This document shows, in pieces, positions 56,045 through 63,697 of a stretch of 64,000 nt of DNA. The stretch comes from Clostridiales bacterium (GTDB lineage: Bacteria; Bacillota; Clostridia; Saccharofermentanales; Saccharofermentanaceae), in contig JAFWDK010000001.1 in assembly GCA_017513085.1 (NCBI GenBank), positions 34,991 through 98,990 on the forward strand. The letters run 5' to 3'. Every line of letters begins with the position of its first letter. Positions within the stretch are counted from its first letter, which is position 1. The notes under the pieces are model-generated. The model was not told the DNA's origin. It was given only the letters and a program-made list of their open reading frames with translations, and did not search any database. A program made the position numbers and the translations under genes.

Positions 56045-57308
56045 ATGGACAGAAAATATATGCCCGATACCGCGGAAAACCGTGAGTATCTGAAGGAACT
56101 GCGTGAGGAGCTGCTGGACTTCGGCCGATCCTTTCCTTCGCCCTCCGGCGCTTCCTATTATCTCGGCAGTGACGGAAAGCCTTTAAAAGACAGGGATCTG
56201 GAGACCTGGATCACCTGCCGGATGGCGCATGTCTATTCCCTGGGCTGCCTTTTGGGAGATCCGGGAAGCGGGGAACTCGTTGACTTCGCTCTGAAAGGTC
56301 TGCGCACTGTTCTGCATGACGATGCGCACGAAGGTTTCTACCCGGCTGTGGATAAGGATCTTCTGCCAAAGGCAGGAAAACAGTGTTACGCCCATGCCTT
56401 TGTGATCCTGGCTGCCGCCAGTGCTCTGGCAGCCGGACGTCCCGGTGCGGAAGAACTGCTGAAAGACAACACGGAAGTATTCCTGAAATACTTCTGGGAG
56501 GAAGAAAAAAGGTCTGACACGGGATACCTGGAATACCGAATTCACACAATGTGAGCCCTATCGCGGGCTGAACGCCAATATGCATACCGTTGAAGCCTTT
56601 CTGGCTGTGGCGGATGTCACCGGTGACAACATCTGGCGGGAACGCGCCGGCAGGATCGTTTGCCATGTGCTTGAATGGGCGGAAGAAAATCACTGGCGGA
56701 TCCCGGAACACTTTGATGAGAACTGGAACCCGCTCTATACATATAACAGCGAGAAAAAGGATGATCCCTTCAAGCCCTACGGAGCGACCCCGGGACACGG
56801 GATCGAATGGGCGAGACTGATCAGCCAGTGGGCATTATCCGCTTATCCGGAGGATAAAAATAAGAGCGGAGCATATATTGAAAAAGCATGTCGTCTTTTT
56901 GAAAGGGCGGTCAAAGATGCCTGGAACGCGGACGGCGCGCGCGGCATCGTTTATACAACAGACTGGAACGGTGTGCCGGTCGTGCGTGACCGGATGCACT
57001 GGACGCTGGCGGAGGCGATCAATACCTCGGCGGTCCTGTATCACATTACCGGCAGGGAGGAATACGCGCAGCTTTACAGTGAATTCCTGCGCTATCTTCA
57101 GGAATGTGTTCATGATCCGGTAAACGGATCCTGGTTCCACCAGCTGGACGAAAACAATCGTCTGAAGGAAACGGTATGGCCGGGGAAGAGCGATCTCTAT
57201 CATGCCCTGCAGGCGACGCTGATCCCGCTGCTCGAACCTTCGGTCTCCGTCGTTCCGGCAGTAAAGAGAAAGCTGTTTCTGGAGGTCAAAGATGACAAAA
57301 AGGTATGA
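56045..57308 (+). pseudogene. AGE-family (YihS/mannose isomerase-like) gene split by one extra A in an A6 run at 56505-56510
   Basis: Removing one A joins ...WEEEK to GLTRDTWNTEFTQCEPYRGLNANMHTVEA. Motifs GHGIEW, RMHW and GKSDLYH are intact. Confidence 0.8.
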
Positions 57309-58260
57309 TGTCGTCGCCTTAGGCGAACTTCTGGTCGATATGATCAATACCGGAGAATCGGGATCCGGGAATCCGGTATTTGAAGCGAATCCGGGCGGTG
57401 CGCCCTGCAATGTGCTGGCGATGCTGCAGAAACTCGGGAAAAAGACAGCTTTTATCGGGAAGGTCGGAAATGACGCTTTTGGCAAAAGGCTCCGCAGCGA
57501 GATCGTTTCCTGCGGGATCGACGACAGCGGACTCCGCGTAGATGAGAACATTCCGACGACCCTGGCTTTTGTGCATAAACTGGAGAACGGCGACCGCGAC
57601 TTTTCCTTTTACCGTGATCCCGGAGCGGATGTGATGCTGGAAGAGGAAGAAGTGGACCTTTCGCTGATCCGTGATTCAAAGGTCTTTCATTTCGGATCTT
57701 TATCGTTGAGTGATGAACCTTGCCGCTCGGCAACGAAAAAAGCCGTCGCGGCAGCCGAAGAATACGGGATCCTGCGTTCCTATGATCCCAATCTGCGTAA
57801 GCCCTTATGGCACAGCGAAGAGGAAGCCAGAGAACAGATCCTCTGGGGAATGAAACACTGCGATATCCTGAAGATCGCCGATAACGAGATCCTCTGGCTG
57901 ACGGGAGAGGAGGATCATGATCCCGCCGTATCGGTGCTCCTGAAGGAGTTTGCGATCCCGCTGATCGCGCTGACGCTCGGCCCGGAAGGCAGCCGGATCT
58001 ATTATCAGGGGAAAAGGATCGATATTCCGCCTTTTCCGCAGAATACTGTTGATACGACCGGGGCAGGAGATACCTATTGCGCCTGTCTGCTGAACGGGAT
58101 CCTGGAGAACGGACTCAAAGATCTTGATGAAGACAAGATCCGCCGTTTCGGTGTTTTTGCCAGCGCTGCGGCAGCGATCGTGACAACACGCAAAGGCGCG
58201 TTAAAATCCATGCCGGACGCAGAATGCGTAAAGGCGCTGATGGATACATATTCAGATTAA
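57292..58260 (+). CDS. PfkB-family sugar kinase (fructokinase-like)
   Basis: GGAPCNV, YDPNLR, VDTTGAGD. Confidence 0.9.
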   Translation: MTKRYDVVALGELLVDMINTGESGSGNPVFEANPGGAPCNVLAMLQKLGKKTAFIGKVGNDAFGKRLRSEIVSCGIDDSGLRVDENIPTTLAFVHKLENGDRDFSFYRDPGADVMLEEEEVDLSLIRDSKVFHFGSLSLSDEPCRSATKKAVAAAEEYGILRSYDPNLRKPLWHSEEEAREQILWGMKHCDILKIADNEILWLTGEEDHDPAVSVLLKEFAIPLIALTLGPEGSRIYYQGKRIDIPPFPQNTVDTTGAGDTYCACLLNGILENGLKDLDEDKIRRFGVFASAAAAIVTTRKGALKSMPDAECVKALMDTYSD

Positions 58261-58265
58261 GACGG

Positions 58266-58290
58266 AGCAGGGCATACAGGCCCTGCTTCT
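58266..58290 (+). terminator. Terminator after the kinase
   Basis: agcagggc-atacag-gccctgct followed by tctgtt. Confidence 0.65.
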
Positions 58291-58315
58291 GTTCTTAGAA
58301 CATCTTTGTTTTCCG

Positions 58316-58452
58316 TTGACGTTGAGGAGCCTGAAAACCTATAATTTTAAAGGAAGTTTTATGGGCAATCCGGAACCACGAAGTTGAAGTTCCTGAATGT
58401 ACCGAGACATGAGTGGCCGGAAACTGATATGGTTTTCCGACCCGTTTTTTTA
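58316..58452 (+). promoter_or_regulatory. Sigma-A promoter plus attenuator/riboswitch-like leader
   Basis: TTGACG(58316)-18 bp-TATAAT(58340). Terminator-like hairpin 58415-58442 with T7 tract overlaps a competing helix 58369-58379/58413-58421. Confidence 0.6.
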
Positions 58453-58472
58453 TGAATAAGCAAGGGGATACT

Positions 58473-59573
58473 ATGGATTACTTTAATGATGTGCAGCTTA
58501 AACCTCTGTTTAACGAAGGCGGCATCTCCTTCGGCGAACTGGAAGGGAACTTCAAAAACCATTATTACGTGCTTTCCGATCCGAAGATCGCAAAGCTGCT
58601 GAATTCGCCTGAAGTCGTTGGTTTTGATGTCTACAAGGCTCTTTTGCCGGCGACCTCCGCAGCTCTGCGCTACTTCAGCGAACAGCATTTCCTGCATCCG
58701 GTCAATATTCTCACGATCCTGCGGGGCGCGCTGAATTACCCGATGGAGGAAGGCTGTTATTCACAGAGCATTCCGGTGCATGACATCAGTTTCCTGTCCT
58801 GCGAGCGTGTTTTTGACGGTAAGGAGATCGTCGGACTGGATGCCCGCTACAGCAAACTGGCGGTCGTACCGGACGGGACTCTGCTCATGGGAGATATCAT
58901 CGCGAGCGGCGAGACTCTTATTTACTGTCTCAATCATATGCTGGATTTCTACAAGCAGCACGATGCAAGGCTGAAGAATATCCTCGCCTTTACGATCGGC
59001 GGTACGAGAGCTGTTGAGATCGCCGAAGAGATGACAGAGAAGATCCGCTGCTTCTGGCCGGAATTCGAAGGTTTTAACGTCGCCTTCTACGGCGGCATGT
59101 TCAGCTGTTATGAGAATGCCGGCGTTGCCGGGATCCAGATCAAAAATATCGATTTCTACTGGGGTGAAAAGGGGATCGTCGATCCGGAATACCGCAGGAT
59201 CACGCTCTCGCAGAGAGATCCGATCTTTGAAAAATGCATCATCTACGATGGCGGGGCGCGCCGCTATGAGATCAACGAACATATCGGGGAAGTGCTTGAA
59301 TACTGGGAAGCGGTCCGCGAAAGAAGCGGCCGCATCGATATCCTTGAACTGCTGGCGGAACGTCTCGGACATCCGCTGAAGATCAGTCTTGAGGAATGGA
59401 TCGATGCCAATGGCTACCGTTATCTCGAAAAAGATCTCTGCGAGAAACTCTATCAGCAGGAACAGGATTATATCCGTGCGCTCAAAGAAGAGGCGCCCAC
59501 ACTGAAGGAGATCGCGGAAGGACGCATCGCTGAATTCAAAGAGGCGCTGAACACGTATGTTTCCGTTCGTTAA
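58473..59573 (+). CDS. Divergent type I phosphoribosyltransferase (UPRT-like) with C-terminal extension
   Basis: NILTILRGALNY (compare UPRT VPILRAGL) and LLMGDIIASGETL (PRPP-binding loop); RBS aagggg. Confidence 0.6.
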   Translation: MDYFNDVQLKPLFNEGGISFGELEGNFKNHYYVLSDPKIAKLLNSPEVVGFDVYKALLPATSAALRYFSEQHFLHPVNILTILRGALNYPMEEGCYSQSIPVHDISFLSCERVFDGKEIVGLDARYSKLAVVPDGTLLMGDIIASGETLIYCLNHMLDFYKQHDARLKNILAFTIGGTRAVEIAEEMTEKIRCFWPEFEGFNVAFYGGMFSCYENAGVAGIQIKNIDFYWGEKGIVDPEYRRITLSQRDPIFEKCIIYDGGARRYEINEHIGEVLEYWEAVRERSGRIDILELLAERLGHPLKISLEEWIDANGYRYLEKDLCEKLYQQEQDYIRALKEEAPTLKEIAEGRIAEFKEALNTYVSVR

Positions 59574-59585
59574 GGGGAAAGAAAA

Positions 59586-60824
59586 ATGACAACAAAGAAT
59601 GAAAAAGTAAAAGATGTCGACTTCTCGACTTCCGCGGTGCCGAAGAATCAGCGCCGCAGTTTCCTGACCATGTTCATGATCATGCTGGGCTTCACCTTTT
59701 TCTCTGCCAGCATGTGGGTCGGCCAGCAGCTGGCGGACGGCCTGGATTTCGGAGGGTTCCTGGGAGCCCTGATCCTGGGCGGTATCATCCTGTCGTTTTA
59801 TACCGGCTCGCTTGCCTATGTGGCAGCCAAGACCGGCATGTCGATGGATCTTCTGGCGGTCAAGGCTTTCGGCAGAAAAGGATCCTATATCTCTTCGGCG
59901 ATGATCTCGCTGACGCAGATCGGCTGGTTCGGGGTCGGAGTGGCGATGTTCGCGATCCCGGTCGCCAATGAGCTTTTCGGCGGCAGCACTTTCGTGACCT
60001 ATCTTCTGGTCATCATCGCCGGCATCCTGATGACTTCTTCCGCCTATTTCGGTATCAAGTCGCTGACGGTCGTCAGTTATATCGCTGTTCCCTGCGTGGC
60101 GATCCTGGGCACTGTCGCCATGATCCTGGCGGTCCAGCGGGGCAACGGCACTTTCCTGGAGAACTTTGCCCGTTCCTCCGGCACGCTGACGATGATCGGC
60201 GGCGCCGGCCTCGTAGTCGGCTCCTTTGTTTCGGGCGGTACAGCAACTCCGAATTTCGCCCGTTTCGCGAAGAACGCGAAAGATGGTGTGATCACGACGG
60301 TCATCGCCTTCTTCATTGGCAATTCCCTGATGTTTTTCATGGGCGCCGTATCCTCGATCTACGTAGGCGGCAATGATATCTTTGAAGTCATGATCAATCT
60401 CGGTCTTTTCTATGTCGCGATCCTGGTCCTCGGTCTGAATATCTGGACAACGAATGACAATGCGCTGTATTCTGCCGGACTGGGACTGGCGAACATCTTC
60501 GGAAAGGATAAAAAACCGATGGTCCTGATCTCAGGCATCATCGGCACCCTGTCCGCGATCTGGCTTTACTGGAATTTTGTCAGCTGGCTGAATATCCTCA
60601 ACTGCACGCTTCCGCCGGTCGGTATCATTCTCGTTCTGGCGTATTTTCTGCATCCGGAGGAATACGATCACGTCGGATCAGACATAGTCGTTGACTGGGC
60701 AGCTGTTATCGGTGTGATCGCCGGCGCGATCGTTGCCAACCTGCTGCAATGGGGCGTTGCCTCGATCAACGGCATGGCGGTCGCGGCAGTGATCTATATC
60801 CTCGGCCATAAACTGAAACGCTAA
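59586..60824 (+). CDS. codB: Cytosine permease (NCS1 family)
   Basis: MLGFTFFSASM, TQIGWFGVG, VGSFVSGGT, NIWTTNDNALY. Confidence 0.9.
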   Translation: MTTKNEKVKDVDFSTSAVPKNQRRSFLTMFMIMLGFTFFSASMWVGQQLADGLDFGGFLGALILGGIILSFYTGSLAYVAAKTGMSMDLLAVKAFGRKGSYISSAMISLTQIGWFGVGVAMFAIPVANELFGGSTFVTYLLVIIAGILMTSSAYFGIKSLTVVSYIAVPCVAILGTVAMILAVQRGNGTFLENFARSSGTLTMIGGAGLVVGSFVSGGTATPNFARFAKNAKDGVITTVIAFFIGNSLMFFMGAVSSIYVGGNDIFEVMINLGLFYVAILVLGLNIWTTNDNALYSAGLGLANIFGKDKKPMVLISGIIGTLSAIWLYWNFVSWLNILNCTLPPVGIILVLAYFLHPEEYDHVGSDIVVDWAAVIGVIAGAIVANLLQWGVASINGMAVAAVIYILGHKLKR

Positions 60825-60865
60825 GAGCTTTTACGGCCGGTAAAGCCGGCTTGCTTATAAAGCGC

Positions 60866-60900
60866 AAACAGACCCGGCGGGAAGCCGAGTCTGTTTTTTC
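60866..60900. terminator. Bidirectional terminator
   Basis: aaacagacccggc-gggaa-gccgagtctgtttttt. Confidence 0.7.
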
Positions 60901-60977: not shown

Positions 60978-62192
60978 TTACTTGAATATCGCAGGCAGAG
61001 GCTGATTGTACACAAAGTCTTTGCACTGCGAAGTCAGCGCGTCCGCGATCATTTCGTAGAGTTTCTTGAGCTCGGTCCCGTGATCCCACGGATCAGCCTT
61101 CGACGGTTTGAAATCATATCGCGATGTCGCGGAGTCAAGGCTCGGCGGATTCTTCATGAAACAGAAAGGAGCATCTTTACCATCGGAAAAAGCTTCATGG
61201 GTATCGATGTTCTCCATGGCATGTCTCTGGACTTCACGCACGAGTCCGGTCATGGCATCGAGCGCATCCTGGCACGGCTTGTGGGTGATCTGGTTGCTGT
61301 AGGGGCGGATCTTCTCACTCATCAGTTTCGTGCATTCATCGCGGATCTCTTTCATTTTATCCTCGGTAGGCGTCTGCCTTGTCAGGATATTCGTGTAATT
61401 ATCTATGACCTGCATTTTTGTAGACCAGTCATATCTCACCTCGTATTTTCCGGGTGACGACTCTTTAATGCAGTCGTCCAGTCCTCTCTTCTTTAGGTCT
61501 TCCTGATAATCCTGGAGTCTCCTGTTGAAGTATTCCTCCATCACTTTCGACTTCTGTCCCTCGAGTTCTCGGATCTTCAGAGCATAGAACGCCGCGTAAT
61601 CATTGGCTCTACCGGCCGGGATCTCCCTTGTGCGGCTGAGCTGCCAGTTGACTGTTTCGAGCTGGGTGTCGATGCGGGCGTAAAGATCTTCGTCATAATC
61701 TCCCTCGGAGAAATTATCGACCCAGCATAAGTAGTTATAGGAAGCTTCCAGCGGAAATTTCCTGAGCATTTTGTTCACGTGATAACAGGCGTCGCTGAGC
61801 ATTTCGATATCTTTGAGATATTCCCGTCCGGTGTTCAGGCACCGGATCTCATCATCGTCGTAGTCCGATGTGACCAGCCTGCCGTCAGTGTATGACAGTG
61901 TAGTTCCGTTCTTCCGGTAGTAAGTGCGGATCCATCCGCTGTCGCCCAGATCATTCATGTACAGCGCCTTCATCATGTTGTCTGTGGTGCTGAAATCACG
62001 GACATCGATCAGTTTGTTTAAGTGACTGGTAAAATTATTGGTCCGCTGGGCAAACCCGCCAAGTTCATATTCAAATACCTTTTCATCGACAGACAGGAAA
62101 GACATGGCGATCTGCGCATCGTCTTCCTGCTCCTGAAGGAGTTCAAAGCGTTCTTCAATACTAAGCTTATCGAAATCAATACCTTCACCCAT
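60978..62192 (-). CDS. Hypothetical protein, 404 aa, acidic and helical
   Basis: Long ORF with strong RBS aaaggag; no motif recognised. Confidence 0.75.
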   Translation of the reverse strand: MGEGIDFDKLSIEERFELLQEQEDDAQIAMSFLSVDEKVFEYELGGFAQRTNNFTSHLNKLIDVRDFSTTDNMMKALYMNDLGDSGWIRTYYRKNGTTLSYTDGRLVTSDYDDDEIRCLNTGREYLKDIEMLSDACYHVNKMLRKFPLEASYNYLCWVDNFSEGDYDEDLYARIDTQLETVNWQLSRTREIPAGRANDYAAFYALKIRELEGQKSKVMEEYFNRRLQDYQEDLKKRGLDDCIKESSPGKYEVRYDWSTKMQVIDNYTNILTRQTPTEDKMKEIRDECTKLMSEKIRPYSNQITHKPCQDALDAMTGLVREVQRHAMENIDTHEAFSDGKDAPFCFMKNPPSLDSATSRYDFKPSKADPWDHGTELKKLYEMIADALTSQCKDFVYNQPLPAIFK

Positions 62193-62233: not shown

Positions 62234-63520
62234 TTAGAACCGGATCTCGTAATCACGCACATACCATCTGCCGCCGTTGGTGCGGATAAGATTTCTTCTT
62301 ACCGGACTGCCCAGCTGCTTGCCGTTCTTGTCAAAGGCAATGGTCTGTACGGACGCGTATTCGACTTTATCGCCGTATCTTTCGGCGATCTTCTGCTGAT
62401 CCTCGGAAGAGAGGAAGTAGGAATCAAGACCCTTTTCATCGTTATAGCCCTTGACCACTGTGATCTTGGTGGCATCCGGGACGACTTCGGCATGAACGTA
62501 TTCCCCGTGGAAACGCTCCTGATGAAGATCCCAATGATAAAGAAGCAAAGATTCCTGAGTGGGATTCTGTCTTCTTTCCGGCTGGATGCAGTCGGTATAA
62601 AGATCGTAGTTCTTTTCCTTGATCGCCTGACGGAAGATCTCAACGAGACGTTCCGGAGTTACATCTTCCGGTACGGATTTTTCGGTATACCAGCTTTCCT
62701 TGATCCCGGCGACTTCTTCTTCACCGAGGAAACGTCCGCTGTTTTCACGTTCCGGATCATACAGACCGAGAACATGTCCCGGCACATAGAGAGCGATCGG
62801 TTCAACGACTACTGCGTAGACCGGTCCGCCGACCTTTTTCTGTCCGGCTTCCGGGATCTCCATGGTCACGTCGGTGATCTCACCGAGGACTGTCCAGGTG
62901 TCGACTTCCATCATCGTGGAATCCACAAGCCGGCGGTAACGCTTAACGGCTTCGTAAGGTCCGAGCCACTTTCTGCTGTTGATCTTGACGAAATACATTC
63001 CGGTCGAGCGTTTGCCGACAGAGATGAATTCGCCGGTAACGCCCATAAACTGGTTCATCGGGTAACGGACTTCGTCCAGAATGACGTATTTGCCGGTCAC
63101 TTCATCCATCGAATCGTTCATCGGATCGGGTGCCGGATAGATTTTTTCAAGTGTTTTGTCCGCGTATTGCGCGGTCAGCTCCTTCCAGCCGTTCTCGCTC
63201 TTCTCGCAGTAGAGTTTGCGGATGTTTTCTTCATTTACGAGATACTGGGTCATCGCGCCGGTGATCTCGGTGAAGTTGCCGGTAGAGCCGATGACACAGT
63301 TCCGGGCTCTCTGAAAAAGATCCTTGACCCTCGGGTCATCCGGGGCAAACTCGTTGAGGATCTTGATACGTGATAAAGCATCCTCACGCGAGCGGAAAAT
63401 GCCGGTAGCTCCCTGTGCTCTTTTGACTTCGTTTTCAAATTCTTTCAGATACATCTCCGCCTGCTGTATCCGCATGGTGAGATTGGTGCTGTTAACAGTA
63501 AAAGTTGTGCTGTCGACCAT
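62234..63520 (-). CDS. Hypothetical protein, about 428 aa, possible C-terminal NTF2-like domain
   Basis: RBS gaaagga and upstream TATAAT; TPERLVEIFRQAIKEKNYDLYTDCI...GRWYV. Confidence 0.75.
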   Translation of the reverse strand: MVDSTTFTVNSTNLTMRIQQAEMYLKEFENEVKRAQGATGIFRSREDALSRIKILNEFAPDDPRVKDLFQRARNCVIGSTGNFTEITGAMTQYLVNEENIRKLYCEKSENGWKELTAQYADKTLEKIYPAPDPMNDSMDEVTGKYVILDEVRYPMNQFMGVTGEFISVGKRSTGMYFVKINSRKWLGPYEAVKRYRRLVDSTMMEVDTWTVLGEITDVTMEIPEAGQKKVGGPVYAVVVEPIALYVPGHVLGLYDPERENSGRFLGEEEVAGIKESWYTEKSVPEDVTPERLVEIFRQAIKEKNYDLYTDCIQPERRQNPTQESLLLYHWDLHQERFHGEYVHAEVVPDATKITVVKGYNDEKGLDSYFLSSEDQQKIAERYGDKVEYASVQTIAFDKNGKQLGSPVRRNLIRTNGGRWYVRDYEIRF

Positions 63521-63697
63521 GATTATCATCCTTTCTCAAAGAATCTCTCTTTTAATTATATCATCCGGATATATTCTCTAATACTGCATCAAAAATGACA
63601 GTTCCGCTAAAAATGTCAAGAAAACAAAACCGCCCGTTGGCCGGGCAGAGTCTGTGAACAGTGATCGATGGGAATATCGGGCGGAGGGCTGGCAGGC

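Follow-up and report, generated by a model that had tools for sequence, protein, structure and literature searches.

In Bacillus subtilis, the xpt-pbuX operon, which encodes a phosphoribosyltransferase (PRTase) followed by a permease, is preceded by a guanine (purine) riboswitch (RF00167). The pyr operons of the Bacillota are attenuated by PyrR, a protein that reads the apical loop of an RNA hairpin. In E. coli, codBA and upp-uraA are controlled by UTP-sensitive start-site switching and reiterative transcription, and pyrG of B. subtilis by CTP-sensitive reiterative transcription combined with an attenuator, a terminator in the leader. The trp and pyrBI operons of E. coli have leader-peptide attenuators. 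Our literature search returned no description of a riboswitch or dedicated attenuator for codB. A passage of PMC4448216 counts codBA as one of the genes under reiterative-transcription control, and an excerpt of PMC11477304 lists a putative cytosine permease of C. difficile, CD1716, in a table that, judged from adjacent rows, is apparently one of T-box-controlled genes; neither extract describes the leader reported here.

We analysed a window of 64,000 nt (the whole stretch of DNA under study) from a Clostridiales bacterium of the Saccharofermentanaceae, in which a leader precedes a two-gene operon (Table 1). The original prediction had taken these genes for a PRTase and codB, and both assignments hold. 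The second gene product scores 414.9 bits with the CodB model NF008241, whose cut-off is 326, and also matches PF02133. The first, P0001, matched no Pfam, NCBIfam or PDB sequence entry; PF14681 does not detect it, and its hhalign comparison with the Upp of the same genome gave a probability of 0.2. Its AlphaFold model (pLDDT 77.4, pTM 0.81, from a 10-sequence alignment) nonetheless found uracil phosphoribosyltransferases (UPRTases) as the top 12 Foldseek matches (E 7e-6 to 1e-4, target TM 0.49-0.56, about 200 aligned columns at 11-19% identity), followed by PyrR structures at ranks 13, 19 and 22 and by other type I PRTases. The Atlas label of its cluster is 'phosphoribosyl transferase domain protein'. 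At the level of the modelled fold, P0001 is a type I PRTase of the UPRTase-like kind. A CodB homologue follows the P0001 homologue in 124 of 160 loci, contig ends cutting some of the other 36, and the window genome has a upp gene and a PyrR-like gene besides. The arrangement is that of xpt-pbuX, with a leader and terminator expression platform before a nucleobase PRTase gene and then a permease gene, in a member of the Bacillota, for which OFF logic would be expected. It departs from xpt-pbuX in that the leader is clade-restricted, with neither a three-way junction nor an Rfam match, and in that a UPRTase-like gene takes the place of the purine PRTase gene. Elsewhere in the window, two forward-strand open reading frames in different frames (56045-56554 and 56580-57308) cover profile positions 3-121 and 143-347 of PF07221 and are the halves of one GlcNAc 2-epimerase family gene, broken by a frameshift, by decay into a pseudogene or by an error of assembly. 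Two large convergent open reading frames on the reverse strand (60978-62192 and 62234-63529, 404 and 431 aa) matched neither Pfam nor NCBIfam.

Table 1. Features of the P0001-codB operon and its leader, in window coordinates
Feature	Position	Strand	Details
Sigma-A-type promoter	58316-58345	+	-35 TTGACG (58316-58321), 18-nt spacer, -10 TATAAT (58340-58345); 11 of 12 consensus matches
Long imperfect 5' hairpin, proposed anti-antiterminator	58356-58408	+	GGAAC (58372-58376) with GUUCC (58389-58393); apical loop 58377-58388, variable
uORF MGNPEPRS*	58361-58387	+	ATG at 58361, TGA at 58385-58387; behind AAGGA
Antiterminator 5' strand, UCCGGaaCCAC, TCCGGAACCAC	58369-58379	+	Overlaps the 5' hairpin
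Antiterminator 3' strand, GUGGCCGGA (GTGGCCGGA)	58413-58421	+	Doubles as terminator 5' strand
Intrinsic-terminator-like hairpin with U7	58415-58451	+	Stem 58415-58442, -9.0 kcal/mol; CG, then U7 (58445-58451)
RBS and start codon of P0001	58463-58475	+	AAGGGG (58463-58468), ATG at 58473
P0001, UPRTase-fold protein with C-terminal helical extension	58473-59573	+	366 aa; outside any curated family
CodB cytosine permease (NCS1 family)	59586-60824	+	13 nt behind P0001

A homologous leader was present in only five fetched loci. Two of them (L002 and L077) are near-identical to the window, and three (L003, L088 and L089) form a sister type whose P0001 is 83-86% and whose CodB is 94% identical to that of the window. 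L088 and L089, which were added by a metagenome scan, match L003 exactly in the leader; only two sequence types, window and sister, underlie the whole of the leader comparison. The sequence upstream differs between the window, L089 and L003/L088, and the leader is unchanged behind all three contexts.

The near-consensus promoter would place the start of transcription near 58352. The sister type has the same two hexamers, while just 7-10 of the 18 spacer bases are retained between the types. With this start and the true start codon at 58473 the leader is about 121 nt long, in agreement with the length of about 120 nt originally given. An in-frame ATG at 58452 was rejected as the start of P0001, since in the sister type it is followed by a stop codon; the RBS and the ATG at 58473 are conserved between the types. 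Promoter, leader, mutually exclusive folds, terminator and RBS thus succeed one another as the original prediction had them, and every sequence element that it named is in its place. The pfkB-family gene upstream (57292-58260) has its own terminator at 58264-58289, so the terminator of the leader is not a gene-end terminator. The motif GTTTTCCG occurs twice, as the 3' strand of the leader terminator (58432-58439) and just upstream of the -35 hexamer (58308-58315), where the sister type retains it with one additional C or T between unrelated flanks. As in codBA, upp-uraA and pyrG, a gene of cytosine or pyrimidine salvage would be controlled through the 5' end of its transcript, and pyrG shares the leader terminator; unlike in these systems, a conserved hairpin of roughly 60 nt precedes the terminator. 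Reiterative transcription was rejected, as the T run and GGGC are both absent at the inferred start. Two RNA runs with small shares (0.13 and 0.07) over 58200-60900 assembled into short contigs of low depth, two covering 58200-58413 and 58277-58419 and one covering 58454-58604; these contigs reach back beyond the promoter, one of the runs probably represents DNA, and the data are uninformative on the transcript start and 3' end.

In the computed folds, the dominant 5' structure is the long hairpin built on GGAAC and GTTCC, which was missing from the original prediction. It is a plain bulged hairpin without a junction or an obvious pocket. The ATGT/ACAT pairing first described as a small hairpin lies at 58397-58410. 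Downstream, the terminator pairs CGGAAAC (58418-58424) with GTTTTCCG, which is followed by ACCCG and then the T run. The perfect stem ends five bases short of the T run, and two extra G-C pairs (58415/16 with 58441/42) across a 1x1 loop reduce this distance to two bases. The hairpin, which holds this 1x1 loop and a bulge, is by its sequence a candidate intrinsic terminator; a simple scan with a strict consensus did not call it. The alternative pairing of 58369-58379 with 58413-58421 competes with both the 5' hairpin and the terminator, and the mutual exclusion that had been proposed is borne out: the segment 58413-58421 serves the antiterminator as its 3' strand and the terminator as its 5' strand. 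A third helix, suggested between AGGAA (58351-58355) and TTCCT (58390-58394), did not survive folding; it is absent from the computed structures, and in one of the two the 5' GGAAG pairs with UUUCC (58434-58438) instead. This pairing and the antiterminator helix together form the antiterminated fold, where both terminator strands are occupied. At -25.0 kcal/mol for the whole leader, it is near-isoenergetic with the terminated fold, composed of the 5' hairpin and the terminator (-24.0 kcal/mol).

When transcripts were cut before the 3' strand of the terminator, the two folds came to -15.1 versus -15.4 kcal/mol in the window type and to -17.2 versus -18.2 kcal/mol in the sister type, where the antiterminator helix shifts register and gains pairs. 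The near-tie is thus kept in both types, within about 1 kcal/mol. Folding at growing length revealed that the long hairpin is the minimum free energy (MFE) structure of a transcript ending at 58412 (-13.0 kcal/mol) and that the antiterminator draws level with it only by 58424 (-13.2 kcal/mol); the predicted kinetic default is therefore the hairpin and then the terminator. We compared these energies with those of shuffled sequences. The antiterminator duplex, at -14.1 kcal/mol, was more stable than those of 981 out of 1000 dinucleotide-shuffled versions of the upstream leader (-8.8 +/- 2.1 kcal/mol; 19 as good). The MFE of the whole leader was ordinary against chance (z = 0.23), and neither the region of the 5' hairpin (225 of 1000 shuffles as good) nor the terminator hairpin (87 of 1000) was, taken alone, better than chance. 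The gain in energy when the terminator's 5' strand pairs upstream was not significant either: 265 of 300 shuffles (0.883) equalled or surpassed the observed -2.4 kcal/mol, their mean being -4.9. Because the stable 5' hairpin confounds this last test, it was replaced by the duplex test.

The comparison of the two types revealed strong purifying selection on the leader. From the 60-65% identity at roughly fourfold third positions of both genes, about 39 changes would be expected in the 102 nt of 58351-58452, and only 7 were found. Six of the seven fall into two apical loops (17 nt, 6.5 expected, which is the neutral rate), three of them in the apical loop of the 5' hairpin, and the 85 nt outside these loops hold a single change against about 32 expected. 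A block of 43 nt (58383-58425) is identical. The apical loops thus drift neutrally while nearly every other base is held, including unpaired linkers and bulges. Constraint of this kind would be expected of bases that take part in two mutually exclusive pairings or that belong to a binding site. All 17 pairs of the 5' hairpin are invariant, and none of the 27 pairs of the terminated fold and none of the 14 of the antiterminated fold varies; with two sequence types only, these invariant pairs say nothing on structure. The RNAalifold consensus is the terminated fold, 5' hairpin included, with an additional pair at the apex of the terminator. This apex pair (58426/58430) is the site of one compensatory change: where the window type has G-U, the sister type has U-A.

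These data bear on the possibility that the leader is not a switch at all, and is instead a constitutive leaky terminator, a stabilizing structure at the 5' end, or a DNA operator for a roadblock repressor, the operator being the inverted repeat CGGAAAC-N7-GTTTTCCG with the further GTTTTCCG at 58308-58315. Such a reading would accommodate the ordinary folding energies of the parts, the invariance of both sets of pairs, devoid of covariation, and the copy of GTTTTCCG that closely precedes the -35 in every type. It fits poorly with about 100 nt of near-total conservation, which far exceeds what an operator or a plain terminator needs, while the confinement of changes to two apical loops and the G-U to U-A exchange point to RNA hairpins and the near-tie between folds is kept in both types. 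We therefore consider it unlikely.

A ribosome could also decide the fate of the terminator, by translating either the uORF or a second frame that starts at ATG 58397 or 58409 and runs through the terminator. As in trp and pyrBI, segments pairing 1:2, 2:3 and 3:4 can be drawn in the leader with a short open reading frame over segment 1: AAGGA stands 6 nt before the ATG of the uORF, which spans the hairpin's 5' strand and ends 2 nt before GUUCC. The uORF is indeed present as originally reported, but its frame is not conserved. Through a 1-nt deletion, it grows from 8 codons in the window type to 16 in the sister type, its stop moving 25 nt to 58410-58412, so the two types would work differently. 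A functional leader peptide would appear as a conserved short frame over the alternative helices, and from the sequences compared the uORF is probably not one. Unlike in trp and pyrBI, neither its frame nor its length is kept and it contains no run of regulatory codons; its Shine-Dalgarno sequence would moreover occupy the extreme 5' terminus of the RNA. The second frame is open in all three variants, and the five type differences that it spans are mostly silent (by our own reading, three synonymous, one stop-to-stop and one non-synonymous), but it has no Shine-Dalgarno sequence. The 43 identical bases lack even a synonymous change, which places the constraint on RNA and not on a peptide. Coupled leader-peptide attenuation is also uncommon in the Bacillota. 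We regard control by the ribosome as very improbable.

We then compared the leader with known RNA families. The original prediction had failed to place it among the purine, preQ1, ZTP, T-box or PyrR elements, and Rfam concurs: the 4227 models of Rfam 15, which include these and PRPP/ykkC, gave no match in the 64-kb window at gathering scores. With permissive filters over 58240-58520 (E <= 10), the leader remained without any match, the sole hit, PhotoRC-I at 58266-58302 (11.7 bits, E 1.4), falling on the terminator of pfkB. Five short motifs of the leader had only chance matches as second sites in the window genome, and the leader is single-copy in all four genomes that have it, always at the P0001-codB operon. 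A covariance model of the leader (R1) returned seven hits at chance level (E 0.055-0.78) from 142 genomes of the family, and from 90 fetched sources only the five loci of the clade, the 85 others being unmatched (best E 0.42). At the DNA level, 300 genomes of the order yielded just chance fragments of 17-38 nt (E 0.004-0.1 per genome).

The same searches weigh on a protein-mediated attenuator, in which an RNA-binding protein, the PyrR of the genome or P0001 itself being the candidates, would hold the 5' hairpin or the antiterminator. The tiers of the leader, namely anti-antiterminator hairpin, antiterminator and terminator, are the layout of PyrR attenuators, and the context is pyrimidine salvage. 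A weak RF00515 match precedes the PyrR-like gene of the genome, PyrR structures figure among the fold matches of P0001, and P0001, with its UPRTase/PyrR-like fold, precedes a permease gene as pyrR precedes pyrP in Bacillus. Conserved bulges in a plain hairpin would also suit a protein site. Against this, the PyrR binding site model RF00515 has no match in the leader at E <= 10 and yet finds the pyrR leader of the same genome at 29.9 bits, below its gathering score of 54; the UUCCAGGAGAG loop of that leader has no counterpart in 58351-58452. The apical loop, the part that PyrR reads, is the variable part of the 5' hairpin. With one site per genome, the regulon would have a single member, and P0001 homologues at 55% identity stand behind unrelated leaders, some of them devoid of hairpins. 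A protein sensor thus appears rather doubtful to us. The pyrR leader, at G000:C5:297312-297450 before the PyrR-like gene (L187), is itself a PyrR-type attenuator with the UUCCAGGAGAG loop and a strong terminator; judged by its sequence, it is a divergent PyrR site.

Outside the clade, the operon is found with other leaders. It is present in 1 of the 142 genomes of the window's family. Relatives of P0001 at about 55% identity are numerous in Lachnospiraceae and other gut Bacillota, an intermediate relative seen as a protein (P0005) reaches 64%, and the CodB of the window is 70-79% identical to Lachnospiraceae copies; the rarity of the operon in the family and this likeness of CodB suggest horizontal transfer. 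The leaders of the homologous Lachnospiraceae operons are unrelated in sequence to that of the window. In several of them a conserved promoter is closely followed by a terminator-like hairpin whose stem has undergone compensatory changes; others are short and hairpin-less. One hairpin recurs (in L004, L005, L021, L022, L026, L028, L051, L055, L069, L071, L078, L080 and L081): CAGYYGGYYUUUY...RRRAGRCYGGCUG with a U run, shortly after the promoter TTGACAA...GTTCAT..TATTAT, its stems displaying compensatory changes and G-U pairs that work on the sense strand only. In some loci an aptamer has no room, because the hairpin begins about 10-25 nt after the -10. No known riboswitch was detected upstream of P0001 homologues in the 20 loci scanned. 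A crude scan for a hairpin plus T run scored 79 of 113 distinct homologous leaders; it includes terminators of upstream genes and false hits and was not used as evidence. Attenuation may be a recurrent solution for the P0001-codB operon, the leader of the window being specific to its clade. We also observed the orphan Clostridiales-1 RNA (RF01699, 117-121 bits) immediately downstream of P0001 homologues (L055, 3587-3745; L079, 3578-3736), in L055 between the P0001 homologue and codB. It is present too at L053, L056, L059, L060, L062, L066 and L074, with tandem copies in L062 (12 nhmmer hits in 9 loci).

Taken as a whole, the leader is likely to be a real, clade-specific, regulated transcription attenuator of some kind. 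A conditional intrinsic terminator would gate the operon of the UPRTase-like PRTase and the CodB permease. Transcription would begin near 58352, and the long 5' hairpin would fold first; the terminator and its U7 would then form, and transcription would stop before the RBS, a default OFF state. Read-through would depend on opening of the 5' hairpin, which would let 58369-58379 pair with 58413-58421 and withhold the 5' strand of the terminator. Our preferred reading is an OFF switch: an effector signalling that pyrimidines are in sufficient supply would stabilize the 5' hairpin. As the sensor, we favour a small molecule that would bind the RNA directly, making the leader a pyrimidine counterpart of the xpt-pbuX guanine riboswitch. 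One copy per genome, always at this operon, speaks for a cis-acting sensor more than for a global regulator, and direct sensing gains further from the base-by-base constraint and the xpt-pbuX precedent. It is weakened by the plainness of the hairpin, by the narrow range of the leader and by the unrelated leaders elsewhere: an RNA that senses a ligand tied to the metabolite of the operon might be expected to travel with the operon, and the Lachnospiraceae leaders count against this. An orphan riboswitch that gates the two genes is accordingly a possibility that we put forward tentatively. The narrower proposal, a new and rare riboswitch class for cytosine or a cytosine nucleotide before a salvage operon whose first gene encodes a cytosine phosphoribosyltransferase, seems quite improbable.

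A dedicated attenuator or riboswitch for cytosine salvage is absent from Rfam 15, and this leader, with two competing folds and one terminator in about 100 nt, is a compact candidate, albeit one of very narrow distribution and only two sequence types. The identity of its effector would also indicate the substrate of P0001. A passage of PMC10221552 discusses a 'missing' cytosine phosphoribosyltransferase, for which the modelled fold of P0001 makes it a candidate. The interest of the leader would rise if its effector were related to cytosine and P0001 were that cytosine PRTase.
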